Positions 1-18,186 of a stretch of 64,000 nucleotides of DNA are shown in pieces. The notes beneath the pieces are model-generated. The model made no database searches. It worked only from the letters and a program-made list of their open reading frames with translations, and was not told the DNA's origin. This DNA is from Gemmatimonadota bacterium (GTDB lineage: Bacteria; Gemmatimonadota; Gemmatimonadetes; Gemmatimonadales; GWC2-71-9): contig JAZDCZ010000091.1 in NCBI GenBank assembly GCA_036679605.1, positions 8,521-72,520 of the forward strand. The letters run 5' to 3'. Both the position numbers and the translations under genes were made by a program. Each line of letters opens with the position of its first letter. Position 1 is the first letter of the stretch.

Positions 1-28
1 CGAGCGCGTGGATGCCGCTGACTGGTAG
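1..28 (+). CDS. 3' end of probable antitoxin preceding VapC (truncated by window edge)
   Basis: Frame 2 reads ERVDAADW* and overlaps the vapC start, as expected for a TA operon. Confidence 0.4.
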
Positions 29-413
29 TTATCTCCTTGACACCAACATCGTCATCGGACTACTGGCGGGCGACGCCGACATCAGGGAACACGTGTCAGC
101 GGCGGGGCGGGTGTACGTCCCAAGCATCGTGCTGGGTGAACTCTACTACGGTGTACAGAAGTCCGGCCGCCCGACCGAGAATGCGAAGCGCATCGATGCG
201 CTCGCTCAGTCCGCGGCCGTGCTGGCGTGCGATGCCGCTACCGCCACGGTGTACGGGGAGCTGAAAGCCCGTCTGCGCGAGCGGGGGACGCCAATTCCCG
301 AGAATGATTTGTGGATCGCCGCGCTCGCGGTCCAACATGACCTCACGCTCGTCACGCGTGACGCGCACTTCGACGCTGTTCCGGTCCTCTCCACCGTAGC
401 CTGGGGGCGCTGA
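12..413 (+). CDS. vapC: PIN-domain toxin, VapC family
   Basis: Motifs YLLDTN, VLGELYYG, ENDLWIAA, LVTRDAHF; 133 aa. Confidence 0.93.
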   Translation: MPLTGSYLLDTNIVIGLLAGDADIREHVSAAGRVYVPSIVLGELYYGVQKSGRPTENAKRIDALAQSAAVLACDAATATVYGELKARLRERGTPIPENDLWIAALAVQHDLTLVTRDAHFDAVPVLSTVAWGR

Positions 414-420
414 CTCCGCC

Positions 421-653
421 CCACTCCCCCCCAAAAGTGCACGTCGGCGATTTTTAGTGCATATTACGATCAAAATCCGAGTGAGGTGAGCGGCTAAAGG
501 AAGCAAGCGCAACGGATTGCGGCGCTCTGGTCGTAGCCGAAAGCGTCGATCAGGACAGTTACGCAGGAAGACCCGATTGGGCTGGCCGGCGGGCTCAACC
601 TGTACGGGTTTGCCAATGGGGATCCGATCAATTTCAGTGATCCGTTTGGATTG
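421..653 (+). repeat. Array repeat copy 1: C-tract + conserved site + linker + Rhs core stub
   Basis: CCACT-Cn-AAAGTGCACGTCGGCGATTTTTAGTGCATATTACGATCAAAAT...TQEDPIGLAGGLNLYGFANGDPINFSDPFGL; near-identical copies downstream. Confidence 0.95.
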
Positions 654-1091
654 TGTGTCTGGGATGCATGTGCGATTGAGGGAGCCAGTATCGGGGTGGT
701 TGGCGTCGCAGCCATCGGCACCGGTATCGCTGTCGCCGCGGTTGCCGTAGCGAACGGTGAGCAGATCGGCAACGCGCTGGACGCCGGACTTGAGGCCGGG
801 AAGAAACTTGTGACCGGTATCTTTGCAGCAGTATCGACGAAGATCCACGAGAAAAAACTTGCTGGTCTGGAACGAAATGCCAACCTCCATTTTGGGTTTA
901 TTGGTGGAAACGGTCCTTCAGGAAAAGATCCGAACAAATGGACCAACAAGTGGAAGAAGGATATTCAAAAGGCGATTCGCGGGATGCGAAAACGACTGAA
1001 TCGCCTCAAAGGAGATAAGAAGATCGAGAAGTGGAGAAACCGCATCGAGCAGCTGGAGCGGCGGCTTCAGGACCTCGAAGGAGGACCATAG
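561..1091 (+). CDS. Orphan Rhs C-terminal toxin module 1 (no proper start; unknown basic domain after a hydrophobic helix)
   Basis: Rhs core end DPIG...DPFGL in frame with ORF 651..1091; in-frame TAG at 534 upstream. Confidence 0.8.
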   Translation, partial: TQEDPIGLAGGLNLYGFANGDPINFSDPFGLCVWDACAIEGASIGVVGVAAIGTGIAVAAVAVANGEQIGNALDAGLEAGKKLVTGIFAAVSTKIHEKKLAGLERNANLHFGFIGGNGPSGKDPNKWTNKWKKDIQKAIRGMRKRLNRLKGDKKIEKWRNRIEQLERRLQDLEGGP

Positions 1092-1424
1092 ATGAGTGGG
1101 ACACCTTCAGAACATCTTGAATTCACTCGGTCAATCGATGCGTTCTTGAGTGGTATTGGCGTTGGTTCGGCAGATGAGCGCGCGGATTTGGCGGTCGACT
1201 TGGCGGATACACTCTACGCCGCTCGTGATGTGGAGAGGATGCTTGGCGAGCTTCTGGATCTGGATCTGGACAGCCCGTCGCAAGTGGACCGTGCCTTAGA
1301 ACTGACCGCCAACATTGAAGTGCAGTTGTTCACGGAGCTGAAGGACCATCTCTTGGATCTTCAGCGGAGCTGGCCCATTCTGTTCCAGAAGCTTGGGGCT
1401 CTCGCTGAGCAGGCAGACACCTAG
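1092..1424 (+). CDS. Putative immunity protein for toxin 1 (acidic, cytoplasmic)
   Basis: Abuts the toxin stop; GGAGG RBS; 110 aa. Confidence 0.7.
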   Translation: MSGTPSEHLEFTRSIDAFLSGIGVGSADERADLAVDLADTLYAARDVERMLGELLDLDLDSPSQVDRALELTANIEVQLFTELKDHLLDLQRSWPILFQKLGALAEQADT

Positions 1425-1516
1425 GCTTCGGGTGGCGCCGGCCTTTGCCGAGGCTTAGTAGTTCGCGTGCTTCGCCGTTGCGGCCGCGTCGTCTTGCGGT
1501 TCTTGGGTAGCAGCGC

Positions 1517-1717
1517 TTATGCCGAGCGCCGTCGTGACTTGACGAGTGCGTCGACGAACTTGAGGACCGCTCGTTGATCGGCGGGTGGTAGCGACTCGAT
1601 TCTTGCGAGCCGTTTCATGAGCCTCGCCTTTTTGGGCGAGGCTTTTGTTTTGACGCGTTTCAATCCAAGTAGTTCGTCGGCGCTCACCTTGAGCGCGATC
1701 GCCAGGTCGGCGAGCAA
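1517..1717 (-). pseudogene. 3' half of XRE-family HTH regulator
   Basis: LADLAIALKVSADELLG...LPPADQRAVLKFVDALV matches the intact copy at 12714-13085; N-terminus missing. Confidence 0.8.
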
Positions 1718-1890
1718 CGCTCCGCCTGGACGATGGTATCGAACTGGAGGCGGTGGTCGGTTGGCACCGCGGACACGAGCGACCTGCTAGCGGTCGACTT
1801 GGAACGGGGCGAGCCGGCTCGGGCGCCCGAAGGCTAACCCAGCCCGTCATTGGCGCCGGCTCCCCGAGTCCCTGCACCCGGCACGCTACC

Positions 1891-1919
1891 TTGCGTGGTG
1901 ATGCTCAAACGGGCATATT
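1891..1919 (+). promoter_or_regulatory. Putative higBA promoter/operator
   Basis: TTGCGT-17-CATATT overlapped by imperfect palindrome ATGCTC-AAAC-GGGCAT. Confidence 0.5.
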
Positions 1920-1921
1920 AG

Positions 1922-2311
1922 ATGGTGACACGGAACGATCATGAGGTTCTCACCCCAGTCGAGTGGATCGGCTCGTCGCGCGAGGAGCTACGGACCATGC
2001 CGCAGGACGTTCGAGACACGTTTGGCTACGCGCTCTATGAAGCGCAGCGCGGCAAACAGCACCGGCGGGCGAAGCGCTTGAAGGGCGACCTAGCGGGGCT
2101 GGTCGAGCTAGTCGATGATTTCAATCGCAACACCTACCGTGCGATCTACACGGTGAAAATGGCTGGCGTCGTCTACGTACTGCACGTGTTCCAGAAAAAA
2201 TCGACGCGGGGAATTGCGACTCCGAAACGCGAGCTCGCGGTGATCAAGGAGCGGTGGAAACGAGCGAAAGCGCACTATGCGGCACATTACGGAGGTACAG
2301 AGGATGGCTAA
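1922..2311 (+). CDS. higB: RelE/HigB-like toxin (phage Gp49-like), toxin-first TA
   Basis: WIGSSREEL, TYRAIYTV, VYVLHVFQKKS..GIATP motifs. Confidence 0.88.
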   Translation: MVTRNDHEVLTPVEWIGSSREELRTMPQDVRDTFGYALYEAQRGKQHRRAKRLKGDLAGLVELVDDFNRNTYRAIYTVKMAGVVYVLHVFQKKSTRGIATPKRELAVIKERWKRAKAHYAAHYGGTEDG

Positions 2312-2663
2312 GCGCAAGATCGGGGCGGCTCCCCACGACATCCCGGTGACCCGGGGCAGCGGCAATGTGTTCTCCGATCTCGGGCTGCCAAAGCCACAGG
2401 AACGACTTGCGAAGGCACAGTTGGCGTCGCTGATCGACGATGCCATTCGGGAACGGAAGCTGACGCAACGGCAAGCTGCTGCGTTGTTGGGCATCGACCA
2501 GCCGAAGATCTCGCGGTTGCTCAGCGGCCGCCTCAGCGGTTTCTCTACGCAACGGCTCCTCGATTTCCTCACCGCACTTGGGCGGGACGTGAACATCGTA
2601 GTGCGCGCGCCACGGCGCCGTCGGCAGGGCCGCCTGCGCGTGCGCATGCTTGCGCCCCGCTGA
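2304..2663 (+). CDS. higA: HigA-like XRE antitoxin
   Basis: GSGNVFSDLG...LTQRQAAALLGIDQPKISRL; overlaps toxin stop. Confidence 0.88.
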   Translation: MAKRKIGAAPHDIPVTRGSGNVFSDLGLPKPQERLAKAQLASLIDDAIRERKLTQRQAAALLGIDQPKISRLLSGRLSGFSTQRLLDFLTALGRDVNIVVRAPRRRRQGRLRVRMLAPR

Positions 2664-2671
2664 CTCGTCTG

Positions 2672-2904
2672 CCACTCCCCCCTGAGAATGCACGTCGGCG
2701 ATTTTTAGTGCATATTACGATCAAAATTCAGGTGAGGTGAGCGGCTAAGAAAAAGAAGCACAACGGATTGCGGCGTCGCGGTCGTACCAGAACGCGTCGA
2801 CCAGGACATATACGCAGGAAGACCCGATCGGGCTGGCCGGTGGGCTCAACCTGTATGGGTTTGCCAACGGGGATCCGGTTAATTTCAGTGATCCGTTTGG
2901 GTTG
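2672..2904 (+). repeat. Array repeat copy 2
   Basis: Same site, linker and Rhs stub as 421-653. Confidence 0.95.
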
Positions 2905-3372
2905 TGTCCTGACCCGCCTTGCTTCAAGGTGGAAGGGAGCGAAGAGTTTAAACGCTTGTGGCGATCGCTGGTGAAAGAGTCGTCGCGGTTAGCCGGGTTC
3001 GTGAAGGAAGCGAGCGCCGCAGATAAACCTGATTTCATTTTGCGGGAAACTGAAGCCTCGACCTTGGACACGTTTGGCAAGCCAGGTGGTATCACCTTCT
3101 TCTTTGATGCGGAGGGAAGATCTGTGGAGGCGGGCTCTGGGGCTGGGATCACAAAGATCGACTCTCGGGTTAGCTCTACAGATCTGGGTAATGCCAGTAC
3201 ACGCGCGATGATAGCCAAGCGTGGGGGGGTGCCAACTCTCGGAAATGTTATGGTGCACGAGTTCTCTCACGGGATTTTGGCTATACAGGGCTTTAGATCA
3301 ACTGAGAAGCAAGCAGGGCTGTCAGAGTGTGCGATCATCAAGCAGGTTGCCGGAGGTCGCTGTAAGCCATGA
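2812..3372 (+). CDS. Orphan Rhs C-terminal toxin module 2, HExxH metallopeptidase-like
   Basis: Rhs stub in frame; VMVHEFSHG motif; in-frame TAA at 2746 and no start before the stub. Confidence 0.75.
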   Translation, partial: TQEDPIGLAGGLNLYGFANGDPVNFSDPFGLCPDPPCFKVEGSEEFKRLWRSLVKESSRLAGFVKEASAADKPDFILRETEASTLDTFGKPGGITFFFDAEGRSVEAGSGAGITKIDSRVSSTDLGNASTRAMIAKRGGVPTLGNVMVHEFSHGILAIQGFRSTEKQAGLSECAIIKQVAGGRCKP

Positions 3373-4094
3373 TGGTGCAGAAGCTAACAGTGGCAGCGAT
3401 GGTTGTTGGCTTCGCGTTCATTACCTATCGCGACGGCCCAAAGGTTCAACTAGTGCAGTCATGCCCTCAGGGGATATCGGCAGGCGTCCTGATGCGCGAA
3501 AAGCTCGGGCTTGGCTCACCAACAGGTTTCGTTCGAGGAGAGCTTAAGGAACTGGGACGGGAACATTCACGTACAGCAGCGCCTCAGGTTGGGTTCTATT
3601 CCGTGAACCGTCGCCATGCGCCTGAACGTGAATGGTTGCGTTTTGCGATAGACTCGGCGGGTATGGGGTACCGCATTTCAGGGTTTCCGACTCTGGACCT
3701 CGAGGCTCTTGCCTGTCGAATGACCGTAAGTCGTGTAACATCACCCGGTGATGTATGGCGCGCGCTGCAAGCCTTTGCTGAGGTTTTAGCCCCCTTCCGC
3801 GGGCCGACCTATCTACTTGGGGTTTCCGAAGAAGGAGTTGAGGACCACCCCGAGAGCTGGCGATTGCTCGGAGACTCCACAGACTTTCCCAGTCCGCAAA
3901 TTGAGTGGTCAGAAGAACGACGTGCCTATCTAGGTGTCGTAAGCGTGCTGTGGTCTTATGAAGCGCGAGATCACCTGGTCGAGTGGCGCTTTGTCGTGGC
4001 ACAAACAGGGCAGATCCTGGCTCTTAACGAGCGCCTACTTGCTGGGCAGAGGGGAATCCGGACATTGAGTTTCTCACGTGAATCATTAAGGTAA
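3369..4094 (+). CDS. Putative exported immunity protein for toxin 2
   Basis: ATGA overlap with toxin stop; hydrophobic N-terminus. Confidence 0.65.
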   Translation: MMVQKLTVAAMVVGFAFITYRDGPKVQLVQSCPQGISAGVLMREKLGLGSPTGFVRGELKELGREHSRTAAPQVGFYSVNRRHAPEREWLRFAIDSAGMGYRISGFPTLDLEALACRMTVSRVTSPGDVWRALQAFAEVLAPFRGPTYLLGVSEEGVEDHPESWRLLGDSTDFPSPQIEWSEERRAYLGVVSVLWSYEARDHLVEWRFVVAQTGQILALNERLLAGQRGIRTLSFSRESLR

Positions 4095-4122
4095 CTAGGC
4101 AGTCGCTTGATCCTCCACATTC

Positions 4123-4150
4123 AGCCCGGTTTCGGCCGGGCTTTTCTTTA
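4123..4150 (+). terminator. Rho-independent terminator
   Basis: AGCCCGGT-TTCG-GCCGGGCT followed by TTTCTTT. Confidence 0.7.
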
Positions 4151-4320
4151 TTCTGAGGTAATCCAGCGTCGGCTTGGTGCTTGAGCATGAGGGAGTCGAG
4201 TAGGGCGTTGGTGATCTTCTTCTCGTCGGCGTTGAACTGACCGAGACCTTCGAATTGCAGGCGGAAGTCGTCGTCGGGTCCGCGCCGGCCGTCTTCGAAC
4301 ACCAACGCATTCGCACCGAC
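4150..4320 (-). pseudogene. C-terminal remnant of XRE-type repressor (second subfamily)
   Basis: ALVFEDGRRGPDDDFRLQFEGLGQFNADEKKITNALLDSLMLKHQA; same position and orientation as the other XRE remnants. Confidence 0.6.
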
Positions 4321-4368
4321 ACCTACCCCTTGGCCAATGTCTCGTGGCCAGTGTAAGTTATTCGTGCC

Positions 4369-4659
4369 ATGGGAGTTCAAGACCGCCTCACCAAGCTACG
4401 GGATATTATCCATGCCACCGCCGCCGCGCATGGCGCTCGGGACGTACGGGTTTTCGGGTCTGTGGCGCGGGGCGAGGAGGCGGAAAACAGTGACATTGAC
4501 TTCCTCGTTACGTTGGAACCGGGTAGGACGCTGCTCGACGTGGCGCGGCTGGAGATGCGCCTTGAGAGCTTACTCGGGCGGCACGTGGATGTCGTGACTG
4601 AAAGTGGACTGCGCGAGCCCCTTCGCACGGATGCCCTGCGCGAAGCCGTTCGTGTCTGA
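4369..4659 (+). CDS. Minimal nucleotidyltransferase (MNT) antitoxin
   Basis: VFGSVARGE...SDIDFLV, VDVVT motifs; 96 aa. Confidence 0.92.
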   Translation: MGVQDRLTKLRDIIHATAAAHGARDVRVFGSVARGEEAENSDIDFLVTLEPGRTLLDVARLEMRLESLLGRHVDVVTESGLREPLRTDALREAVRV

Positions 4660-5008
4660 GGGCCGTCGTGCGGCCCTGGCTCGCCTGCGCCACATGGTGG
4701 AGGCTGCCGACGCCATCATCGGGTATACGGCTCGCGGCCGGGAGGTGTTTGACAGCGACTCCGCCGTGCGCGAGGCGATTCTGTATCAAGTGGTCGTGCT
4801 TGGCGAGGCGGCGAAGGCGGTACTTGCCGCCGACCCGTCGCTTGAGAATGCGCTGCCGGAAGTGGAATGGTCGCCGATTGCTCGTATGCGAGACCGGGTG
4901 GCGCACCACTACTGGGCAACGGACCGTGATGTCGTGTGGGCCACGGCTACGGTTGCCGTGCCCGAACTCCGTGCAGCCCTTGCTGGGGCGCTTGAGCGCC
5001 TTGGGTAG
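4652..5008 (+). CDS. HEPN (DUF86) RNase toxin
   Basis: VLGEAAK, PEVEW, MRDRVAHHY (Rx4H) motifs; overlaps MNT; GTG start inferred. Confidence 0.9.
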   Translation: MSEGRRAALARLRHMVEAADAIIGYTARGREVFDSDSAVREAILYQVVVLGEAAKAVLAADPSLENALPEVEWSPIARMRDRVAHHYWATDRDVVWATATVAVPELRAALAGALERLG

Positions 5009-5068
5009 TCGCTCAGCGGTCTGCGCGCCCACCGGCCGATGGTCTCTCCCGTACCCGTCTATCTCACC

Positions 5069-5301
5069 TCACCCCCTCCCCAAAGTGCACGTCGGCGATT
5101 TTTAGTGCATATTACGATCAAAATTAGAGTGAGGTGAGCGGCTAAAGGAAGCAAGCGCAACTGATTGCGGCGCCCTGGTCGTAGCCGAAAGCGTCGATCA
5201 GGACAGTTACGCAGGAAGACCCGATCGGGCTGGCGGGCGGGCTCAACCTATACGGATTCGCCAACGGGGATCCGATCAACTTCAGTGATCCGTTCGGGCT
5301 G
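5069..5301 (+). repeat. Array repeat copy 3
   Basis: Same site, linker and Rhs stub. Confidence 0.95.
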
Positions 5302-5757
5302 TGTCCGCCGTGCAGTGTAGGAGAGCAGGGGATTGTATTCATCAAGCGCCACGAAGGGTTCAGGGCGAACGTTTATGATGACCTCGGTGGCCGAGGCACG
5401 ATCGGATACGGCCACCTCATCCTGCGAGGTGAGACCATCCAAGGCCCGCTAACTCGCGGACAGGGAGATGCACTGCTCCGGCAAGACCTCATAGTAAGGG
5501 TGCAGCCTGGACTTGATCTGATCACCGGTGACCTTAATCAAAACCAAGTCGACGCGGTCGGTAGTCTCATCTTCAACGTAGGCGTTTCCAACTTCGCTGG
5601 TTCGAGGGCACTCCAGAAACTGAACGCCGGCGACTTTGAAGGAGCGAAGGATGAGATGGCAGAATTCAGGCTCGTGAACGGCAAGGTTGAGCCAAGCTTG
5701 GTCCGTCGGCGCGCGGATGAGCGTCGTTTGTTTGACAAGAACGAGGGGGGGCGATGA
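5209..5757 (+). CDS. Orphan Rhs C-terminal toxin module 3: GH24 phage-type lysozyme
   Basis: Manual translation past DPFGL gives HEGFRANVYDDLGGRGTIGYGH (E-x8-D-x5-T), then FNVG and LVRRRADERRLF. Confidence 0.92.
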   Translation, partial: TQEDPIGLAGGLNLYGFANGDPINFSDPFGLCPPCSVGEQGIVFIKRHEGFRANVYDDLGGRGTIGYGHLILRGETIQGPLTRGQGDALLRQDLIVRVQPGLDLITGDLNQNQVDAVGSLIFNVGVSNFAGSRALQKLNAGDFEGAKDEMAEFRLVNGKVEPSLVRRRADERRLFDKNEGGR

Positions 5758-6095
5758 ACATGCTGATTCTGATGCTAACGCTGCAACTCGTGACCGTGTC
5801 CCGGCAATGCGACAATGCGCAAAACACAGTCGAATTGGAGGACTGTCTCAGACGAGAGCTAGATTCCCTCAATCTCGAAATCAGAGAGCGGGTATCTGAA
5901 ATTGAGGAACGTTTTCCGTCTCGGAAGCGTGTGCTTTTCGATCGCGCACAGCGGACGTGGTCACTTTATCGCGATCTCCAATGCGAGAGTGAGGCCGCCC
6001 AATTTGAAGGGGGAAGTATCGCGGGTGTATCAACGCTCCGCTGTCATATGCGCATTGCGGATGCACGGTTAACCGAGTTGAATGAGGTCTACTGA
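5754..6095 (+). CDS. Lysozyme inhibitor LprI (DUF1311)-like immunity protein
   Basis: C..AQNTVELEDC, AQRTWSLYRDLQC, GGSIAG...C motifs; signal-like N-terminus; overlaps toxin stop. Confidence 0.88.
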   Translation: MNMLILMLTLQLVTVSRQCDNAQNTVELEDCLRRELDSLNLEIRERVSEIEERFPSRKRVLFDRAQRTWSLYRDLQCESEAAQFEGGSIAGVSTLRCHMRIADARLTELNEVY

Positions 6096-6245
6096 AGGGA
6101 AACCGCTCCGCCCAGTGGCGCAACGGCCACGCCCCTCGAAGAGCAGTATGGCTAGCGGTACCGTCCGTCGGGTGAGTACGGTGATTCTATCTATGCAGTT
6201 TCGGACCATGGCAGCTTTTCATGTCCGCAAGACTTTGTTCGTAGG

Positions 6246-6560
6246 CTAGGTGCTCCATCGCCGTGACTCGACCAGTGCATCCACAAACTTGAGGACAGCC
6301 CGCTGATCTGATTGGGGTAGTTTTTCGACCTGCTGGAGCCTTTTGAGGAGCCTTGCCCTTTTGGGCGAGGCTTTCTCTTTCACAGGCTTGAGCCCTAGCA
6401 GTTCGTCGGCACTCACCTTGAGCGCTTTCGCGAGGTCAACGAGCAGCGTGCCGGGTGGCTGGGCGTCGTCCTGCTTATAATAAGGCGCCATCCCTCATGT
6501 CTTGCTGGGTGAGGTCGCGGCTCTTGCGGAGCCGATCGAGGCGGGGTCGGATAACTTCTT
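6246..6560 (-). pseudogene. Frameshifted/internally deleted XRE regulator
   Basis: RLDRLRKSRDLTQQ in one frame and YYKQDDAQPPG...LPQSDQRAVLKFVDALVESRR in another. Confidence 0.8.
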
Positions 6561-6645
6561 GTTCCGTACTCTCGGCGTGCCTCTTGGCCAAGGCGGTCGC
6601 CCATTCGGTGAAGTTTCGCCGAACGCACCCGTTTCGGACATCACC

Positions 6646-6685
6646 TTGACTGTGGCCATAAGTGTATGTACAGTAATGCTGTACA
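6646..6685 (+). promoter_or_regulatory. yefM-yoeB promoter with paired TGTACA operators
   Basis: TTGACT(6646)-17-TACAGT(6669); TGTACA at 6667 and 6680, the known YefM operator core. Confidence 0.75.
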
Positions 6686-6703
6686 GTTAATCAGGGTGTG
6701 CCG

Positions 6704-6994
6704 ATGGCCATTCGTACTACTTATACAGACGCCAGGCAGCGACTCGCCGAACTGTGGCGACGCGTTGAAGAAGACCGTGAACCGGTGATAATCACACGCC
6801 GTGGACACCAGGAGGTAGCCCTCGTGGCTGCCGACGAACTCGCAAGCCTGCAAGAGACCGCCCACCTGCTGCGGTCGCCGGCGAATGCGCGCCGCTTGTT
6901 GCGGGCGCTCGACCGTGCACTGGCGGGTGGCGGCAGACGTCGCTCGATGGAGGAATTGCAGCGGGAGTTGGACCTTGGGCCAGCGGCGGGGTAG
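6704..6994 (+). CDS. yefM: Phd/YefM antitoxin
   Basis: TYTDARQRLA, PVIITRRG, LQETAHLLRSPANARRL. Confidence 0.93.
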   Translation: MAIRTTYTDARQRLAELWRRVEEDREPVIITRRGHQEVALVAADELASLQETAHLLRSPANARRLLRALDRALAGGGRRRSMEELQRELDLGPAAG

Positions 6995-7253
6995 AGCCCG
7001 CAAGGCGATCTTCCAGAAGGAGTTTCTCGAGGATCTGCGATTTTGGGTAGGAAACGACCGCAAGACCGCGTTGCGGTGCCTGGATCTGGTGCAAGCGGCG
7101 TTGCGCGACCCGTTCACCGGTATTGGCAAACCTGAGCGATTGAGATATCTGGGTGGCAGCATGTGGTCTCGGCGATTGACACAGGAGCATCGCGTGGTGT
7201 ATCTGGTTCGGCACGATCGCATCGATTTTCTGCAGGCACGCTACCACTACTGA
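6975..7253 (+). CDS. yoeB: Txe/YoeB toxin
   Basis: PFTGIGKPERL, WSRRLTQEHRVVY, QARYHY; TTG start inferred from GGGAG RBS. Confidence 0.93.
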   Translation: MGQRRGRARKAIFQKEFLEDLRFWVGNDRKTALRCLDLVQAALRDPFTGIGKPERLRYLGGSMWSRRLTQEHRVVYLVRHDRIDFLQARYHY

Positions 7254-7275
7254 TCTTTCGGGAACCGCCTCGACC

Positions 7276-9101: not shown

Positions 9102-9138
9102 GCACCGTCTGGCCCGGTCCCCTTCAGCGATCCCACCG

Positions 9139-9194: not shown

Positions 9195-9195
9195 T

Positions 9196-9388
9196 GTGCC
9201 GCGGATACTAACGCGGATTGACGCGGGTGGGCCCGCGGATGATTACACTGATGGCCGCAGATAGGAACGCGGATTAACACGGATGGGGCCGCGGATGATT
9301 ATGCCGATAGCCGCGCATGTAGGTGAGGTCTTGTCTCAGGTGCGCCGCGAGCTGTCACTCAGGATGAACCTCCTGAACTGAAGCCGTT
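9196..9388 (+). mobile_element. Truncated, internally duplicated end of triple-CGCGGAT element
   Basis: Two tandem GCCGCGGAT-N4-ACGCGGAT-N2-ACGCGG units; ends with DEPPELKP, resembling the GxxExxY N-terminus NEPPTLHP. Confidence 0.6.
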
Positions 9389-9389
9389 C

Positions 9390-9622
9390 CCACTCCCCCC
9401 CGAAAGTGCACGTCGGCGATTTTCAGTGCATATTACGATCAATATTCGAGTGAGGTGAGCGGCTAAAGGAAGCAAGCGCAACTGATTGCGCCGCTCTGAT
9501 CGTAGCCGAAAGCGTCGACCAGGACAGTTACGCAGGAAGACCCGATCGGGCTGGCCGGTGGGCTCAATCTCTACGGGTTTGCCAACGGGGATCCGATTAA
9601 TTTCAGTGACCCGTTTGGGTTG
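9390..9622 (+). repeat. Array repeat copy 5b
   Basis: Same site, linker and Rhs stub. Confidence 0.95.
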
Positions 9623-10108
9623 TGTCCAGTGTGGCTCGATGGTATTCCGTGCGTAGCTCCGGTTGCCAACTTCATGACGCCAGCGCGGGCACCGGGTCAG
9701 CGGAGTGGAGTCGGCGGTAGTGAATTTGGCTTTACGCGTAGCGGTGGTGCTCTATTCCACAACGGTTTTGACCAGGATGCGCCTGTTCTGACCTCAATTG
9801 CAGCTCCAGGTGACGGTACACTGACCGTCGGATTCAACGACAAGTCCGGGCTCAACGTCACACTTGATCTTGGGAATGGAGCGTCCGTGAGTTTCTCTCA
9901 TCTGTCAAAAGCCCCTGCTGGGCTCGCTGTTGGCGAAGGCCTCCAAGTACAGGCTGGTCAGACGATCGGTTACGCGGGTACAAGTGGAAACTCTGCGGGA
10001 TCCGGACGCGATCCTCATGCCCACATCGTAACACGCGTGAAGCAACGAACGTGTAATCCACGCGACTTCTTTTCTGAAAGTGGTGGGGGTGGCAGTTGTG
10101 GGAACTAA
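9530..10108 (+). CDS. Orphan Rhs C-terminal toxin module 5: M23 metallopeptidase
   Basis: FHNGFD (HxxxD), FSHL, VQAGQTIGYAGTSGN, PHAH (HxH). Confidence 0.9.
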   Translation, partial: TQEDPIGLAGGLNLYGFANGDPINFSDPFGLCPVWLDGIPCVAPVANFMTPARAPGQRSGVGGSEFGFTRSGGALFHNGFDQDAPVLTSIAAPGDGTLTVGFNDKSGLNVTLDLGNGASVSFSHLSKAPAGLAVGEGLQVQAGQTIGYAGTSGNSAGSGRDPHAHIVTRVKQRTCNPRDFFSESGGGGSCGN

Positions 10109-10797
10109 TGTGCTCTAGGAATGCGGTCATTGTGCGTGCTAGTGGGCTATTGAGAACCGGCAGCATCGTCCTTCTGGTTCTACAGTTCGCAGCGTGCCGA
10201 AGTGCAAAGAAACAGGACGATGCCACTCCGCATACTTCTCGCGACCTGGCCTGCGATCCTGCAGAAGTGGTCGCGGTGAGTTCCGGAGACAAACAGGTCG
10301 CGGTTGTAGATCTAGATTGCGACGGTGTAAGTGACAGCGTGACAGTTACGTGGAAGATACACGAGACTGGGCGCCGTCCGACTCTTACCGTGCACGGCTC
10401 TTTAGGTGGTGAGATATCGACGGAAGGAGATTTTCTTCCAGAGCTTGTTTCCTTCGGCGACCTCGACAGTGACGGAATGCGAGACATACTCGTTGTTAGC
10501 GTCACTGAGTCGAGTGTGTTCGCTGAAGTCGTCATGGTTCACCGTGACGGGGATCTCAGTCTAGTGACTTTTCCTAGCCTTTCGTTGCGCCGAGCAATGC
10601 AATACCGGTTCCACGACGTAGGGTGGAGTTCGGGGTGCCTTGGCACTCTCATGCCTCGGCTGGAGCGATTAGGTACGGGAGGTCTTGCAGTGTCGTTGGC
10701 TACTGGAGACTACCGTCGGGAGGGTGACTGTGCACGCGCTCGTCGTCAGATATTGCGCGTCGTAGACCAGCGCTTTGAACCGGTTGAGGAACGCTGA
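10108..10797 (+). CDS. Putative lipoprotein immunity protein for toxin 5
   Basis: TAATG overlap; lipobox FAAC; DLDCDG and GDLDSDGMRD (FG-GAP-like) loops. Confidence 0.7.
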   Translation: MCSRNAVIVRASGLLRTGSIVLLVLQFAACRSAKKQDDATPHTSRDLACDPAEVVAVSSGDKQVAVVDLDCDGVSDSVTVTWKIHETGRRPTLTVHGSLGGEISTEGDFLPELVSFGDLDSDGMRDILVVSVTESSVFAEVVMVHRDGDLSLVTFPSLSLRRAMQYRFHDVGWSSGCLGTLMPRLERLGTGGLAVSLATGDYRREGDCARARRQILRVVDQRFEPVEER

Positions 10798-10857
10798 GTT
10801 CGATGCCGGAGCTATGTGAGCACATCCCGGCTTCGCTGGGCTGTGTGTTTTTGGTAG

Positions 10858-10923
10858 CTACGCCGTGCGCCGTCGTGACTCGACGAGTGCGTCGACGAAC
10901 TTGAGGACAGCTCGCTGATCTGA
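10858..10923 (-). pseudogene. Last ~21 codons of XRE regulator, cut by CGCGGAT element
   Basis: Reverse strand reads SDQRAVLKFVDALVESRRRTA*. Confidence 0.8.
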
Positions 10924-11587
10924 GAGCCGCGGATAAGAACGCGGATAGACGCGGATCTTTCGTACCTGCCCGTGGGTTGCACGACATTACCAGCCTCTGG
11001 AACTCTGCGCGTCTCCCAAAATTGAGCCGCAGATAATTACGCTGATGCACGCGGATGTTTCGTACCTGGCTGCGGGTTGCGCGACATTACCAGCCTCCGG
11101 AACTCTGCACGTCTCCCAAAATTGAGCAATAAGCCAACTTCGAGTTTCGTGGCGCGCAAATAGTTGAGCACTTGCGCCGTGTGGGAAGGCTCTAGCTGTG
11201 CGAGCGCTTTGATCTCGACCAGTACCTTGTGTTCCACAATGAGGTCTGTGCGAAATCGAGCGATTGGAAGGCCGCGATAACGGACTTCGGCTGGGGTTTC
11301 GGTGTCGACGAGAAGACTGGAGGCCCGGAGATCGTGTGCGAGGGCCCGCTGATAGACTCGCTCGGCGAAGCCTCGGCCGAGTGTGTTGAAGACCTCATAG
11401 AATGATCCGATTATATTGTGGGTGATGGCGGCGTGGGGCAAGTTGGGGTGCAGGGTTGGCGGTTCGTTCATGGACCGAATATGGTGCCCTCTGCGCGAAT
11501 TGCGGTATCGATTTTTTGCGCAGTGAAGCCTTTTCCCGCATTGGAGTGCGGTTAATCCGCGTTAATCCGCGCACCAATCCGTGGCCC
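10924..11587. mobile_element. Triple-CGCGGAT inverted-end element carrying GxxExxY (nested: outer end 10924, inner end 11024)
   Basis: Left ends GAGCCGCGGAT-N4-ACGCGGAT-N2-ACGCGGAT; right end is the inverted equivalent ending ATCCGTGGCCC, followed by GGAAGAC of the Rhs core. Confidence 0.7.
11037..11471 (-). CDS. GxxExxY protein (PD-(D/E)xK nuclease-like)
   Basis: LGRGFAERVY, RTDLIVE, LVEIKA, QVLNYL, GLLLNFG. Confidence 0.93.
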   Translation of the reverse strand: MNEPPTLHPNLPHAAITHNIIGSFYEVFNTLGRGFAERVYQRALAHDLRASSLLVDTETPAEVRYRGLPIARFRTDLIVEHKVLVEIKALAQLEPSHTAQVLNYLRATKLEVGLLLNFGRRAEFRRLVMSRNPQPGTKHPRASA

Positions 11588-11588
11588 G

Positions 11589-12152
11589 GAAGACCCGATC
11601 GGGCTGGCCGGTGGGCTCAACCTGTATGGGTTTGCAAATGGGGATCCGGTTAATTTCAGTGATCCGTTTGGGTTGTGTAAGGACAAGGACGGTGAAGAGC
11701 TGCCGGCGGATCAGTGTCGAGACGCAACCAAGCAGGAAGGCAAAGCGACCTACACAGCTGCGGTCGCAATGGGTTCGTGGACGTGGACGATGGGGAGAGA
11801 GGGTGAGCCGGCAAAGGACGTGGCGAACCAGGTTGGCGACTGCACCGACTACTGCGAGTCTGCTCACCGAGGCGCGGGACTTCCCGGCTTGGATCCGCGG
11901 CCAGCGACATCCGGGTTCGCCTCTTCCTCGGACTACCGCGCTTTGGGATCGGAAGCCCCCCAAGCTGGCGATGTGATCGTTCAGGGTGGGCATGCCGGCA
12001 TTTTCAGCGGGCAGTACGATAGTCAGGACAGACCACTCGGAATCCAGAACGGCGGCAGTGGAACGAAGGTGATTCCCTGGGGCCCCAATGTCTCTGGACT
12101 CGCCAAGGTGAACCCCGTGTTCTACCGGCGCCAGGTTCCAAAGAACCCCTAG
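11589..12152 (+). CDS. Orphan Rhs C-terminal toxin module 6: NlpC/P60-like (papain-fold) hydrolase
   Basis: Stub EDPIG...DPFGL; GDCTDYC, PQAGDVIV, GHAGIF motifs. Confidence 0.78.
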   Translation, partial: EDPIGLAGGLNLYGFANGDPVNFSDPFGLCKDKDGEELPADQCRDATKQEGKATYTAAVAMGSWTWTMGREGEPAKDVANQVGDCTDYCESAHRGAGLPGLDPRPATSGFASSSDYRALGSEAPQAGDVIVQGGHAGIFSGQYDSQDRPLGIQNGGSGTKVIPWGPNVSGLAKVNPVFYRRQVPKNP

Positions 12153-12167
12153 CCGCACGGAGCAAGC

Positions 12168-12692
12168 ATGAAGACGAAATCGACACTAGCGGCAGTGATA
12201 CTTATACTTACAGCTTGCAGTTCTGCAGGAGAGAGCCAGATGCGGGCGGAAGCTGCGAGAAGTCTAGTCAAACAATTCGTAGACGCCGAGATGGATGGTG
12301 ATTCAGAAACGGCGTGGGCACTCCTGACGGGATGTGACGTCTTGCCAACGGCCGACTACATCGAGCCGACGCTCTCATACGAGATTCTGGATGCTATCGA
12401 ACAGAATGGGCGAGTCACGATCCCAGTACGGTACGTAGTTCTAGGGAAGGCATGGTCGTATGACGTCCGGCAGGTCGGGCAGCACAACTGGCGATTTGTG
12501 CCCGACGTCCGCGTCGATACCGTTGAATTCTCCATCGACGATGATCGCGAGGGGCCATTGAGGATAGTCTGCGCCTACCTCCCGCCGATACATGATGCGG
12601 CTATGCAGATGGCAGGAACGATTGAGCGGTTTGATGAAGAATCACGGGCGGCTTGGGAGGATGCGATGCGAAAAGCGCGGGAGCTACGGTAA
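12168..12692 (+). CDS. Putative lipoprotein immunity protein for toxin 6
   Basis: MKTKSTLAAVILILTAC lipobox; directly after toxin. Confidence 0.75.
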   Translation: MKTKSTLAAVILILTACSSAGESQMRAEAARSLVKQFVDAEMDGDSETAWALLTGCDVLPTADYIEPTLSYEILDAIEQNGRVTIPVRYVVLGKAWSYDVRQVGQHNWRFVPDVRVDTVEFSIDDDREGPLRIVCAYLPPIHDAAMQMAGTIERFDEESRAAWEDAMRKARELR

Positions 12693-12713
12693 CCTGCGCT
12701 GGTGCGACTGCTG

Positions 12714-13085
12714 CTACGCAGAGCGCCGTCGTGATTCGACGAGGGCGTCGACGAACTTGAGGACGGCGCGTTGATCTGACTGGGGCAGTTTTTCTACCTG
12801 CTGGATCCGTTTCATGAGCCTCGCCTTTTTCGGTGAGGCTTTTGGTTTCATGGGTTTCAATCCAAGTAGCCCGTCGGCGGAAACCTTGAGCGCGATTGCC
12901 AGGTCGGCGAGCAACGCGCCGGGCGGTTGAGCATCCTGTGTTTCGTAGTAGGCGATGACCCGCTGTGACACATCGACCATGTGACCCAACTCGGCCTGTG
13001 TAACGTCCCGGGTCCGCCGGAGGTCTGCCAACCGCGGGCCAAAGCCTTCGATGGTCCGCTGCTTCATCTGCAACACCTCGCTCAT
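12714..13085 (-). CDS. XRE-family HTH regulator (only apparently intact copy)
   Basis: FGPRLADLRRTRDVTQAELG...VSQRVIAYYE; GGAGG RBS. Confidence 0.88.
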   Translation of the reverse strand: MSEVLQMKQRTIEGFGPRLADLRRTRDVTQAELGHMVDVSQRVIAYYETQDAQPPGALLADLAIALKVSADGLLGLKPMKPKASPKKARLMKRIQQVEKLPQSDQRAVLKFVDALVESRRRSA

Positions 13086-13200
13086 GTCGTGACCTCCGAA
13101 GGGTAAGGGTGGTATCCGGTAACGGTGCGTCTGACTTGGACAGTTGGCGATACAGCCTGCGTGCCTTGGCAATGGAGGGAGCCGAGCTTAGACTGATACC

Positions 13201-13437
13201 ATGCCGACGGTCCTCCGGACTGGCCCTTACCGATTCTTCTTCTATTCCGCCGATCGGGAGGAGCCGCCGCATGTGCACGTCGAGCGCGACGACTGCCGGG
13301 CGAAATTCTGGCTTGACACGGTCCGGCTGCACGACAGTACGGCGTTCCAACGCCCCGAACTTGGGCGCCTGGAGGGGATAGTGCAGAGGCATCACGACGA
13401 GTTGCTGAGAGCATGGCATGACTTCTTCGCCGCTTGA
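13201..13437 (+). CDS. DUF4160-family protein (putative TA partner)
   Basis: MPTVLR.GPYRFFFYS.D..EPPHVHV...AKFWL. Confidence 0.88.
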   Translation: MPTVLRTGPYRFFFYSADREEPPHVHVERDDCRAKFWLDTVRLHDSTAFQRPELGRLEGIVQRHHDELLRAWHDFFAA

Positions 13438-13723
13438 ACTCCGGTCAGGGGTGGCTCAGACCGTCACGGTGACCGACGAGGCCCTGGTCGTCGACTTGGT
13501 GGATGGGCGAACTGTCTCTGTGCCGCTCATGTGGTTCCCCCGCCTCCTGCATGGCACACCTGCCGAGCGCGGCGAGTGGCGCTTGATCGGGCGCGGCGAG
13601 GGCATTCACTGGCAACGACTCGACGAGGATATCAGCGTCGACAGTCTGCTGGCGGGGCGCGCGTCTGGCGAGGCTCAGGCTTCGCTTCAACGTTGGCTCG
13701 AGAACCGCAAGGCTGCTGGCTGA
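13418..13723 (+). CDS. DUF2442-family protein (putative TA partner)
   Basis: LVDGRTVSVPLMWFPRL, GIHWQRLDEDISV. Confidence 0.88.
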   Translation: MTSSPLELRSGVAQTVTVTDEALVVDLVDGRTVSVPLMWFPRLLHGTPAERGEWRLIGRGEGIHWQRLDEDISVDSLLAGRASGEAQASLQRWLENRKAAG

Positions 13724-13937
13724 AGTTACGTTAACTGGGGCCGCGGATGATCGATCTGGGGCCTGGGGGCACCGAACGACGACTCGGTGCGTGACTGACT
13801 GCGTTTGGGCATTGCGGTGGGGTGCCGGTGGCCAGAGTGAACTCAAGTAGAGCGCTCTCGCAAGTGCAGCTGGTGGATCGCGGCTAAAGCCGCACGAGCA
13901 AGAGAAGATTCCGTCCCCACCACCCGCGAAGCGCGCC

Positions 13938-13994
13938 CCACTCCCCCTCAAGAGTGCACGTCGGCGATTTTCAGTGCATATTACGATCAAAACT
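13938..13994 (+). repeat. Conserved site only (copy 7), followed directly by a CGCGGAT element
   Basis: CCACT-C5-TCAAGAGTGCACGTCGGCGATTTTCAGTGCATATTACGATCAAAACT. Confidence 0.9.
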
Positions 13995-14147
13995 GTGCCG
14001 CGGATAAGAACGCGGATAGACGCGGACAACAGCTCTGGTCGACCGTAGGCTCCGCCCTGGCGGCCTGGCTTGCTGTAGGCCTGCTGCATGCACGTAGCAG
14101 GTTTACGGAGTCGATTCGCGTTAAATCCGCGCAACAATCCGCGGCCT
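13995..14147. mobile_element. Gene-less (MITE-like) triple-CGCGGAT element A
   Basis: Inverted triple-repeat ends; first ~105 bp homologous to element B. Confidence 0.7.
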
Positions 14148-14148
14148 G

Positions 14149-14187
14149 TATTATGATCCGGCTACCGGTAGATTTACGCAGGAAGAC
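14149..14187 (+). pseudogene. Rhs core fragment YYDPATGRFTQED between two MITE-like elements
   Basis: Direct translation; continues at 14422 after the insertion. Confidence 0.85.
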
Positions 14188-14421
14188 GAGCCGCGGATAG
14201 CAACGCGGATAGACGCGGATAACAACTCTGGTCGGCCGAAGACTCCGCCCTGGCGGCCTGGATTGTTGTAGTTCTGCGGCATGCACGTAGCAGCCACGGA
14301 TGATGGCGCGGATTGACAGGGCAGCGCGAGGACTTTCGTTCAGTTGTACTGGGAGCCGTGTGCTTTTCGCGTGCGAGATGGCCCGAAATCCGCGTTCATC
14401 CGCGCAACAGATCCGCGGCCC
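14188..14421. mobile_element. Gene-less (MITE-like) triple-CGCGGAT element B with 7-bp flanking direct repeat
   Basis: GGAAGAC at 14181-14187 and 14422-14428; ends GAGCCGCGGAT / ATCCGCGGCCC. Confidence 0.78.
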
Positions 14422-14422
14422 G

Positions 14423-14989
14423 GAAGACCCGATCGGGCTGGCCGGCGGGCTCAACCTGTATGGGTTTGCCAACGGGGATCCGGTTAATTTCAGTGATCCG
14501 TTTGGGCTGAAAGCGTGTGATCCGCCGGACGATCCAAGCTGCACGGGTGGTGAGGCTTCGACGGCTTCCGAAGCAGCTGGTAAGGTCGTCGACTTCCTTG
14601 AATCCCTTCCTGGAAAGGCCGTTTCACTCCTTGCTGAAGGGGTGGGTGCGTTCGGCCGGATTCTAAGCTCGGTGGTTCCTGGGGTTGGGAACGCGGCGGC
14701 TGCGGCGACTGGCATCGATCCTGAAGGGAACCGCCTAGGTAATCTAGCCCGAGCAGCAGCTGTGGGAGCTGCTGTCACGGAGGTCGTACTTACTAGACCC
14801 ACGCCCGGCGGCGACGGAGGGATTTCTCGACATGTCCTAGAAAAGGTGGGAGGTCGAACTAACCGCGTTATCCATCAGGTCGAACGAGCTGGAGGGATCG
14901 TGCACCAACATACGACTCACGTCGGTAAGTATGGGGGATTAAGGCGCTTTCCAGACAAGTGGACGGGAATACCAACCATCAAGAGGTGA
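14423..14989 (+). CDS. Orphan Rhs C-terminal toxin module 7 (His-rich basic tip, possibly a nuclease)
   Basis: Stub EDPIG...DPFGL; C-terminal RHVLEK...VIHQV...IVHQHTTHVGK. Confidence 0.75.
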   Translation, partial: EDPIGLAGGLNLYGFANGDPVNFSDPFGLKACDPPDDPSCTGGEASTASEAAGKVVDFLESLPGKAVSLLAEGVGAFGRILSSVVPGVGNAAAAATGIDPEGNRLGNLARAAAVGAAVTEVVLTRPTPGGDGGISRHVLEKVGGRTNRVIHQVERAGGIVHQHTTHVGKYGGLRRFPDKWTGIPTIKR

Positions 14990-14993
14990 CGAT

Positions 14994-15290
14994 ATGGGAT
15001 CGGATCTCGAACCGTTCATCGTCGACGTCATAGAGATGAGCCAGCGAGTGATTAGTGAATTCCGATCAACGCTGGCAGCACTCGGTTTGGACGCAGACGT
15101 GCCTCAAGTGAGCCGTTCTCCCCATGGCGTAGAGATCGTCTCCTATGTGCGCCGCCAGGGAGATATTGAGGATGCCATTGAGTTTGCGGCGGTCGAGAAT
15201 GACCGGGTCACTTACTCCGTGAGAGAACTAGAGAAGTGGCTTCGTAACGCGCTGGACGATGTCGTCCGCAGAGCGGTTGAGGGAGCGTGA
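14994..15290 (+). CDS. Putative immunity protein for toxin 7 (acidic, cytoplasmic)
   Basis: Starts 4 bp after toxin stop; GAGG RBS. Confidence 0.7.
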   Translation: MGSDLEPFIVDVIEMSQRVISEFRSTLAALGLDADVPQVSRSPHGVEIVSYVRRQGDIEDAIEFAAVENDRVTYSVRELEKWLRNALDDVVRRAVEGA

Positions 15291-15313
15291 GGATTGTCGT
15301 CGGCTACTGGAGA

Positions 15314-15389
15314 GGCTCTGGGCCTGGGATCACAAAGATCGACTCTCGGGTTAGCTCTACTAATCTGGGCAATCCCAGTACACGCGCGA
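15314..15389 (+). repeat. 76-bp remnant of toxin module 2 (matches 3133-3208)
   Basis: 71/76 identical by manual alignment. Confidence 0.85.
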
Positions 15390-15627
15390 AGGCCGCAGTG
15401 CGATAGCCACCGAGCGGTCTGCCAGCGCCAGTTTCTATGGGGCGGATGAGAAGCTGATGTTTCAGCAGTCGAATAACGACTCACTGGACGTGTAGGGTAC
15501 TCCTCAGCAGGCGGCGTGGTGCGTATCAGGAGTACTAGTACGAGGCGAGCCGCGGGGCCCGAAGCCTTCCTCGCGCTTCATCGTTCGTCGGCTAGCCCAG
15601 TCGCCCCGTTGCTTTGATGAACCGGAC

Positions 15628-15666
15628 TTGACCACGTCGCCTCCCCATGTGATCTTACCAGTAAGA
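15628..15666 (+). promoter_or_regulatory. Putative AbrB-PIN promoter/operator
   Basis: TTGACC-17-GATCTT overlapped by perfect palindrome TCTTAC-CA-GTAAGA. Confidence 0.6.
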
Positions 15667-15687
15667 ATACGAACGAGGAAACCGGCT

Positions 15688-15951
15688 ATGGCATCGGTAG
15701 CGACGACAAGACTGTCCTCCAAGGGACAGGTGGTCATCCCTGAGGAGATCCGGCGGCGTCTGGGCCTGGAGACCGGTGCCCAGTTCGTCGTAGTGGGGGA
15801 GGGGGACGTTGTGGTACTGAAGGCGGTGCAGCCGCCGTCGATGCGGCAGTTCGACGACGTGATGCGGGCGGCGCGTAAGGCGGCCCGCCGCGCGTGTATG
15901 AAGCGTCGCGATGTTGCCGATGCGGTTCGCAAGGCGCGACGCTCGACGTGA
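15688..15951 (+). CDS. AbrB/MazE-type antitoxin
   Basis: TRLSSKGQVVIPEEIRRRLGL. Confidence 0.9.
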   Translation: MASVATTRLSSKGQVVIPEEIRRRLGLETGAQFVVVGEGDVVVLKAVQPPSMRQFDDVMRAARKAARRACMKRRDVADAVRKARRST

Positions 15952-16352
15952 GGGTAGTAATCGACACCAACGTACTGGTGTCGGGCGTTTTCTTCGGAGG
16001 TGTGCCGGGTCGGATTCTCGAAGCGTGGCGAGACGGGAAACTCGCACTCGTTGTGTCGCCTGCGATCCTCGAGGAATACGAGCGTGTGGGCGCTGTGCTT
16101 GCCGTGCAGTATGAAGGAGCGGAACTGGAGCCGTTTCTCGCGCTTGTCGCTGTGCACGCGGATGTCGTCCAAGCCGCTCCTCTGGCGGAGGGTCTCTGCG
16201 CCGATCCCGATGACGACATGTTTATGGCGTGTGCCCTAGCCGGTGCGGCGACCGTTGTGGTGTCGGGGGATAAGGCGCTTCGGAGGGTATCTGGCTGGAA
16301 CGGGATCGAGGTGCTTGCTCCGAGAGCATTCGCCGACCGCTACCTGAGCTGA
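15948..16352 (+). CDS. PIN-domain toxin (PIN_3 type)
   Basis: VVIDTNVLVS, CADPDDDMF, VVSGDKAL; GTGA overlap. Confidence 0.9.
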   Translation: MRVVIDTNVLVSGVFFGGVPGRILEAWRDGKLALVVSPAILEEYERVGAVLAVQYEGAELEPFLALVAVHADVVQAAPLAEGLCADPDDDMFMACALAGAATVVVSGDKALRRVSGWNGIEVLAPRAFADRYLS

Positions 16353-16431
16353 TGGGTCAGCTAGGCAGCACCTCAATCCGTCGAGCACCATTGCGAAGCG
16401 GCCGCAACGGCGGGCTGGACCTATATGGGTT

Positions 16432-16461
16432 GGTGGGTTCGATTCCCACACGCTCCCGCCA
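16432..16461 (+). repeat. 3' fragment of tRNA-Sec (selC), probable attR of the island
   Basis: GGTGGGTTCGATTCCCAC T-arm + 8-nt acceptor strand ACGCTCCC + G-CCA; no matching 5' half nearby. Confidence 0.7.
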
Positions 16462-18183: not shown

Positions 18184-18186
18184 GCC

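Follow-up and report, generated by a model that had tools for sequence, protein, structure and literature searches.

Tandem Rhs toxin tips in a Gemmatimonadota genome and a candidate integrative element at the rhs core/tip boundary

The window analysed here comprises the 64,000 nucleotides (nt) which close contig JAZDCZ010000091.1 (C426) of the Gemmatimonadota assembly GCA_036679605.1 (G000), a short-read metagenome assembly of 434 contigs with an estimated contamination of 6.3%. Positions 1-16468 hold an array of seven units, each composed of the end of an Rhs core (the stub) and, after it, an unrelated tip (146-162 residues) with its coupled gene, in frames without internal stops. With its start-less core ends, unrelated C-terminal domains and coupled genes, the array is by anatomy an orphan rhs-CT/immunity array. 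Its architecture, together with that of a nearly complete element immediately upstream, indicates that it was probably built by repeated site-specific insertions of one small integrative-element family into the 3' end of rhs.

Seven Rhs tips and the boundary of their units

The features of the array, of the DNA preceding it and of the contig carrying the putative parent rhs are given below, in window coordinates unless a contig is named.

C426:1577-8548: upstream part of the nearly complete element (tip, XRE, primase-helicase, recombinase, two palindromes, antitoxin)
C426:7057-8067: Xer-like tyrosine recombinase (NCBIfam PRK01287, 394 bits against a cut-off of 371)
12-413, +: VapC (PIN) toxin, toxin-antitoxin (TA) cargo of the nearly complete upstream element (Pfam PIN, E 3.5e-20)
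420-560, +: right arm 1, crossover at about 559-561
561-1091, +: stub and tip 1, start-less; weak Ntox16-like lead
1092-1424, +: predicted immunity gene 1, named by position; no Pfam or NCBIfam match
1517-1735, -: 3' remnant of an XRE repressor, 71% identity to the element XRE
1922-2663, +: HigB(Gp49)/HigA pair (Pfam)
2671-2811, +: right arm 2
2812-4094, +: stub, tip 2 (HExxH seen by inspection) and predicted immunity gene 2 (3369-4094)
4095-4322, -: small open reading frame (ORF) resembling a helix-turn-helix (HTH) protein, no detectable kinship to the element XRE
4369-5008, +: MNT/HEPN pair (Pfam)
5068-5208, +: right arm 3
5209-6095, +: stub, tip 3 (phage-type lysozyme, PF00959, E 6e-31) and LprI lysozyme inhibitor (5754-6095; PF07007, E 2e-12)
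6246-6491, -: XRE remnant, 62% identity
6698-7253, +: YefM/YoeB pair (Pfam)
7276-7416, +: right arm 4
7417-8546, +: stub, tip 4 (HExxH; weak DUF6782 metallopeptidase match) and predicted immunity gene 4 (7968-8546)
8650-9101, +: HicB-like/HicA pair (Pfam for HicA only; the HicB-like gene has no Pfam match and is named by context)
9139-9388, +: truncated arm (9139-9194), then CCGCGGAT-type repeats
9389-9529, +: right arm 5
9530-10797, +: stub, tip 5 (M23 peptidase) and predicted immunity gene 5
10858-10923, -: XRE remnant, final 21 codons
10924-11587, -: separate insertion, GxxExxY gene (11037-11471) flanked by CCGCGGAT-type repeats; replaces TA pair and arm
11589-12692, +: stub from EDP, tip 6 (Cys/His motif by inspection; no significant match) and predicted immunity gene 6 (12168-12692)
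12714-13172, -: near-complete XRE copy, 55% identity
13201-13723, +: DUF4160/DUF2442 putative TA pair
13723-13772, +: copy of the palindrome found after the upstream recombinase, 94% over 50 nt
13937-14421, +: truncated arm (13937-13992), CCGCGGAT repeats and a longer rhs fragment (14140-14187)
14423-15290, +: stub, tip 7 and predicted immunity gene 7 (14994-15290)
15688-16352, +: AbrB/MazE-type antitoxin and PIN toxin (Pfam)
16431-16468, +: 38-nt copy of the selC 3' end, marking where the island with the rhs locus ends on the right; identical to C65:37670-37707
Contig C65: intact tRNA-Sec gene (selC), sigma-54-type activator (by inspection) and first 927 codons of rhs

The array contains a 237-bp repeat, present in five copies in the window (87-93% identity to the first) and one upstream, whose non-rhs part is confined, within this genome, to contig C426. 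The first-pass annotation had read the array as seven units sharing one grammar, each opening on a conserved site followed by a linker, a start-less stub, a tip, an immunity gene, an XRE remnant and a TA operon. Seven intact tip/immunity pairs are indeed present, while the full series of site, linker and stub is limited to units 1-5: unit 6 has neither site nor linker, unit 7 has the site without the linker, and units 5-7 are disrupted by CCGCGGAT-type repeat insertions and the GxxExxY gene. Stubs of units 1-6 have no in-frame start, as described; that of unit 7 is preceded by an in-frame ATG/GTG in the upstream repeat DNA. Of the XRE remnants reported in units 1, 2, 3, 5 and 6, four derive from the element XRE (units 1, 3, 5 and 6); the HTH gene of unit 2 is unrelated in sequence, and unit 4 has none. 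TA-like pairs follow six of the seven tips and belong to six families, HigB(Gp49)/HigA, MNT/HEPN, YefM/YoeB, HicB-like/HicA, DUF4160/DUF2442 and AbrB/PIN; VapC precedes unit 1, and in unit 5 the GxxExxY insertion takes the place of the pair. Finally, the site does not mark the boundary of the units, which lies at TQ codons about 127 nt further downstream.

Regarding function, Pfam identifies tip 3, which has LprI downstream, as a phage-type lysozyme and tip 5 as an M23 peptidase, and the lysozyme/LprI pair is the only one of the seven recognisable as cognate toxin and immunity. Database comparisons returned only weak leads for tips 1, 6, 7 and the upstream tip, and PADLOC added little for the locus. 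All stubs in the window lie on one strand, with no inverted ends of the shufflon type.

The boundary is sharply defined. At the six arm-stub junctions of this genome, identity to the rhs core is lost 6-7 nt before GGAAGAC, at (F/Y/V)TQ codons, and the six copies break within 1 nt of one another. The 140-nt arm preceding the junction is non-coding and folds no better than shuffled sequence. The stub measures 93 nt with 82-95% identity between copies, and the arms are equally diverged (81-96%). Among the 12 stubs found in this genome, variation is purely synonymous at 21 codon columns and alters the residue at 2, a pattern which fits former gene ends. Fixed ends and a short shared core at the target, as in elements moved by tyrosine recombinases, are both present. 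Since identity breaks at TQ and the arm follows the TA pair in the upstream element, the unit is defined as crossover, stub, tip, immunity gene, XRE, core, TA pair and arm; judging from the alignments, the former "site and linker" is the 140-bp right arm, i.e. the right end of the preceding unit. The arm motif GCGGCTAA is found at window positions 490, 2741, 5138, 7346 and 9459. It also occurs in both orientations within the upstream primase gene (L001:5222-5263), with a variant form where the recombinase gene ends (about 8028), and likewise in relatives; it may be a protein-binding site.

Further repeats accompany the array. CCGCGGAT-rich insertions occupy 9195-9388, 10924-11587 (which carries the GxxExxY gene) and 13993-14421. 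A duplication of GGAAGAC flanks the 14188-14421 piece, and contig C332 has a 32-nt match next to another Rhs-like end; these repeats are possibly a second mobile unit preferring Rhs ends. A 76-nt part of tip 2 (3133-3208) recurs at 15314-15389, after immunity gene 7, and adjoins a decayed internal rhs fragment (15390-15560) matching contig C236.

A nearly complete element and the selC island

The 8.5 kb upstream of the window (L001) carry two further tips and a core which is absent from the window units. The order is tip, immunity gene, XRE on the opposite strand, a CHC2/Toprim primase-helicase with a long C-terminal part, recombinase, two palindromes, VapBC and arm; the core is oriented like the window units and terminates in the same arm. 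The recombinase is intact and its catalytic R-K-H-R-H-Y residues line up with those of XerD. The element XRE scores 65 bits against RstR, below the 80-bit cut-off. The two dif-like palindromes (L001:8160-8190 and 8225-8250) are located away from the crossover.

The genomic position of the array was established by comparison with G001, a genome of the same genus, in which only about 1 kb of a single contig separates the genes before selC from those after window position 16489, with no island there. As the flanks are collinear and the selC site of G001 is empty, the rhs locus sits in an island at selC, with an intact tRNA gene at one end and the duplicate of its 3' end at the other. The putative parent rhs on C65 is linked to the array through this duplicate and the collinear flanks, spanning separate contigs. 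Four short contigs, each of which begins in the same rhs repeat, bear five more tips. Next to selC on C65, no island integrase was seen. The element recombinase was considered for this role and is an unlikely candidate, given that its relatives insert in toxin genes and that G001 has arm-stub units together with an empty selC site. In G001, a gene of about 1 kb follows selC which was not seen at that place in the genome of the window, and an arm-stub-tip unit (L100, G001:C22:49848-50479) lies about 340 nt from the end of a tRNA gene; the G001 array may be anchored elsewhere than selC.

To the right of the island, microcompartment shell genes and an aldehyde dehydrogenase-like gene (17833-20169, by inspection) are collinear in G001; tRNA-Pro (27374-27448) and tRNA-Arg (45391-45464) genes are found further on. 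Other rhs loci of the genome (G000:C372:306-5540, C406, C81, C288) have no arm, and include a full-length frame of 1744 codons with an M23-like tip.

The element family in other genomes and its TA cargo

Relatives were sought in GTDB genomes, and the best 80 of 526 stretches were kept, giving 77 loci with 88 recombinase copies; among these, the closest recombinases are in records titled Gemmatimonadota. A primase precedes the recombinase in 72 of the 78 copies with upstream room. An Rhs end lies within 4 kb downstream of 43 of the 88 copies; among copies with 2.5 kb of room or more, the figure is 32 of 45. Elements of this kind are present in several phyla. In all ten hand-picked loci having both a parent-type end and a post-arm stub, identity begins abruptly at a lineage-specific codon: FTQ, YNY/YNW, YRA, HFN, YIT and YDG, and VENN in cdiA. 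In an Enterobacter cdiA locus, the parent and the post-arm tip have only about 14 nt in common at VENN. In Escherichia coli ZYB39, a VENN-to-VENN repeat of 7,797 nt is conserved at 99.99%, with a different tip behind the last arm; the recombinase gene of this strain is matched in 4 of 5426 E. coli genomes.

In G045, a three-contig genome of the same order, two rhs loci comprise 23 junctions (15 after an arm end) and three full cores. Four of the duplicated segments starting near a junction begin 3-12 nt before TQ, and the parent's own tip is repeated behind an arm at 99.8%. A whole element of 6.8 kb is present in two copies, one following an arm and the other an rhs core fragment; from stub position 16 onwards, the two have private stub variants in common. 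A further locus (L007) has an arm ending at the same TTTCAC and abutting a non-rhs gene, a 5'-truncated amidohydrolase-like gene (L007:11807-11940, by inspection), which makes an off-target event possible.

On a broader scale, of 401 genomes of the phylum, 6 carry the arm-junction pattern with a 62-64 nt spacer, for which a reversed control gave no match; 96 metagenomic stretches have it as well. A search of metagenomes for an exact 35-nt form of the site retrieved nothing. Both complete forms (recombinase, TA, arm) and core-deleted ones (XRE, TA, arm, or truncated primase and arm) are found. The primase had no match among phage records, and viral contigs yielded only distant recombinases. Two circular records, one of 11.3 kb from Lonsdalea and one of 8.8 kb from Shigella, show element parts only, with the arm joined to a stub. 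They belong to three circular "plasmids" of 8.8-13.1 kb (L119, NZ_CP072857.1; L288, NZ_CP055112.1; L289, NZ_CP091935.1), of which the third holds pieces of primase and recombinase, with no Rhs end detected; the two may be excised circles.

Related recombinases without a primase were also observed beside Rhs stubs which again begin at TQ and are preceded by a short shared motif (G037:C2:562965-593685 and 235001-247012; G019:C40:69080-89912; G152:C1:57518-71998; G093:C1:548039-549961; L112, L113, L117, L118, L148-L152). Every stub of G037 is inverted relative to the parent rhs, and both orientations occur in G019 and G152, where VapBC, YefM/YoeB, HigBA or HicBA and XRE remnants lie between the tips. 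The arrangement in G037, G019 and G152 amounts to a shufflon-like geometry for Rhs tips.

TA pairs recur at a constant place in these elements. A match to the TA panel lies within 1.1 kb before the arm at 22 of 56 metagenomic junctions (one junction per tip, with enough upstream DNA), always on the same strand and pointing at the arm, compared with 3 of 1200 random windows of this genome; the panel was drawn from this locus and its relatives, and TA families outside it may have been overlooked. In 11 of 31 loci, a type II TA toxin is encoded in the interval from the recombinase to the following Rhs end, as judged from 133 of 188 candidate ORFs. In the comparison with G001, three blocks of TA pair and arm are conserved at 92-96%, and the only match to the seven tips is one tip start, at family level; tips have been exchanged between genomes, and the TA pair travels with the arm and not with a tip. 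From its placement, the pair is optional cargo belonging to the preceding element. A strict rule of one TA pair per tip was rejected, as adjacent tips of G045 lie 1.2-1.3 kb apart without a TA match (147 of 190 candidate ORFs scanned). Addiction may be the reason why the pairs persist.

Origin of the array and known systems

Taken together, these observations suggest the following course of events. A complete element would run from the crossover through a replacement rhs end with its tip, an immunity gene, the convergent XRE, the primase-helicase, the Xer-like recombinase, two palindromes, an optional TA pair and the 140-bp arm to the next crossover. In the circular form, arm and stub would together make up the attachment site, and the target would be a few codons (here F/YTQ) lying shortly before the conserved end of the Rhs core. 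Acting on these sites, the recombinase would join the new tip, in frame, to the full-length rhs, and the previous tip would be stranded behind the arm with no start codon of its own. Successive insertions would stack the units. Later deletions would remove the primase-recombinase core, leaving tip, immunity gene, TA pair and arm, and core-less units may still move through a recombinase supplied in trans. Excision and replication of the element, and re-activation of stored tips, are predicted on the same grounds.

Several results weigh against this course of events. In the source run, neither a circle nor an alternative fusion was found, and the joints which did appear are explicable by other copies or organisms; the small circular records of other genomes may have arisen during assembly from tandem repeats. 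A frameshift near L001:4455-4480 splits the local primase, with the same letters in the contig of read run X1 and a single frame in four relatives, so the local copy probably cannot replicate. The Xer-like palindrome follows only 23 of 68 recombinases, as counted with a pattern of our own (background 4 of 3000). Arm models built from one lineage missed the arms of the others, matching only Gemmatimonadota-type loci and L008, and the likeness of arms across phyla is a matter of position and a short motif judged by eye. Furthermore, in the case of Rhs, the 93-nt stub is long enough for homologous recombination to yield the same end product. Eight of the 23 junctions of G045 and a second stub on contig C393 show longer rhs homology and no arm, one pair with the same tip has differing stubs, and a parent/orphan pair differs at stub position 18; these arm-less junctions and mosaic stubs indicate that homologous recombination also acts.

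The last points raise the question of whether homologous recombination could suffice, with a single element insertion followed by ordinary C-terminal displacement, during which arm and stub spread as a passive block of homology. This corresponds to the published model of tip exchange and draws on the long-homology and mosaic stubs of this genome and G045, as well as on the length and 82-95% identity of the stub. It is nevertheless considered unlikely: the sequence shared at VENN is limited to about 14 nt, the arm of L007 ends at the same base on a gene other than rhs, the junction codon varies by lineage yet stays fixed relative to the arm, and the arms are as diverged as the stubs, unlike recent copies. 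Repeated insertion of the element remains the preferred explanation.

Integrons consist of tandem cassettes with the tyrosine recombinase IntI, attC sites and TA pairs within the array. The first-pass annotation had proposed an integron-like library; in such a model, a sedentary integrase would move cassettes of site, stub, tip, immunity gene and TA pair bounded by attC-like sites. The tandem same-strand units and the TA pair after most tips are shared features, and the primase-less arrays with a lone recombinase in relatives make a sedentary form of the same chemistry plausible. At this locus, such a library is largely refuted and is regarded as very improbable. The recombinase reaches 112 bits against the integron-integrase cut-off of 265 (TIGR02249) and passes instead that of PRK01287 "XerC"; seven folds of the site gave z values of +0.27 to -1.28, with no attC-type hairpin; the crossover lies within a coding sequence; the TA pair stays with the downstream arm and not with the tip; and the recombinase is inside the repeated mobile unit with the primase, between tips, and not at an array head with attI. 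The more general proposal of the same annotation, construction by site-specific recombination, is likely in view of the recombinase and the fixed junctions. Its placement of recombinase and parental rhs outside the window was borne out for the former (at C426:7057-8067, with selC intact), the putative parent having been recovered as a 5' part only. Cassette content, which it expected to differ between relatives, does so in G001 for the tips and not for the three blocks of TA pair and site.

That annotation also raised misassembly. In C426:1-20000, which takes in the first 11.5 kb of the window, the interior of each unit corresponds to one single-copy contig of read run X1, with zero differences and a depth of 12.6-17. 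These contigs end within every repeat of the array; they support the unit interiors, and the order across the repeats is putative. Real units whose tandem order is an artefact of repeats or strain mixing, as the fragmented and contaminated assembly and the five contigs beginning in the same rhs repeat might suggest, are the least probable alternative of all, given the even depth across units, the same architecture in G045 and in complete isolate records, and the selC duplicate with flanks collinear to G001.

Among known elements, some integrative elements carry a replacement for the end of their target gene, and CTX/RS1 exploits Xer. Likeness to these elements extends to the element-borne gene end with which integration restores a reading frame, the sub-threshold RstR match and the dif-like palindromes after the recombinase. 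Unlike these, the element described here encodes its own recombinase, and its replacement end carries a different toxin domain, changing the function of the gene; an integrative element whose replacement end changes the toxin appears to be the distinctive property of the family. In Bacteroidales, recombinase-associated immunity arrays are known as rAID. Zhang et al. 2012 (PMC3482391) report XerC/D recombinases beside poly-immunity loci, and thus an Xer-type recombinase near polymorphic-toxin arrays; in the passages concerned, the arrays hold immunity genes only, with no tip, primase or in-gene crossover.

Arrays of start-less tip and immunity pairs stacked behind a full gene have been described before. 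Jackson et al. 2009 (PMC2935791), in the part dealing with Rhs C-terminal displacement, describe new tips shunting old ones downstream and propose a circular intermediate. Poole et al. 2011 (PMC3150448) report orphan cdiA-CT/rhs-CT modules, one conserved precisely from VENN to VENN, and leave the exchange mechanism open; the words integrase, primase and recombinase are absent from their main text as retrieved. As far as the relevant passages go, the recombinase-primase element, the fixed crossover and the dedicated arm set the present locus apart from these arrays. Kawano et al. 2007 (PMC1891008) noted SymE, cHTH and Prim-Hel neighbourhoods beside RHS and haemagglutinin genes, which resemble this locus in combining an HTH gene, a primase-helicase and a TA-type gene; the corresponding passages mention no recombinase, attachment site or link to tip exchange, and the present locus has type II-like TA pairs, with no SymE seen. 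Internal promoters can drive the expression of orphan rhs genes (PMC7043789), so the tips of this array, called silent in the first-pass annotation, may not be so. The arrival of tips and the shunting of old ones have so far been ascribed to homologous recombination or left open, in the passages available from Jackson, Koskiniemi, Hagan and Poole, with Koskiniemi 2014 and Hagan 2023 retaining the homologous model. Taken singly, the parts are known, and many genome annotations include the gene cluster; no description of their linkage into a tip-swapping element was found in the open-licence literature and bioRxiv.

Beyond this array, it seems somewhat more likely than not that a widespread family of integrative elements occupies the core/tip boundary of Rhs and CdiA and swaps warheads site-specifically, in autonomous, core-deleted (mobilisable) and domesticated shufflon-like forms, with the TA slot aiding persistence. 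The arrival of tips becomes a testable question, as a candidate enzyme, two DNA sites and a vehicle can now be named. The same element would account for the precise VENN-bounded modules in contact-dependent inhibition (CDI) loci and, if the proposal is true, the family would be a source of tyrosine recombinases with short in-gene targets which vary by lineage.

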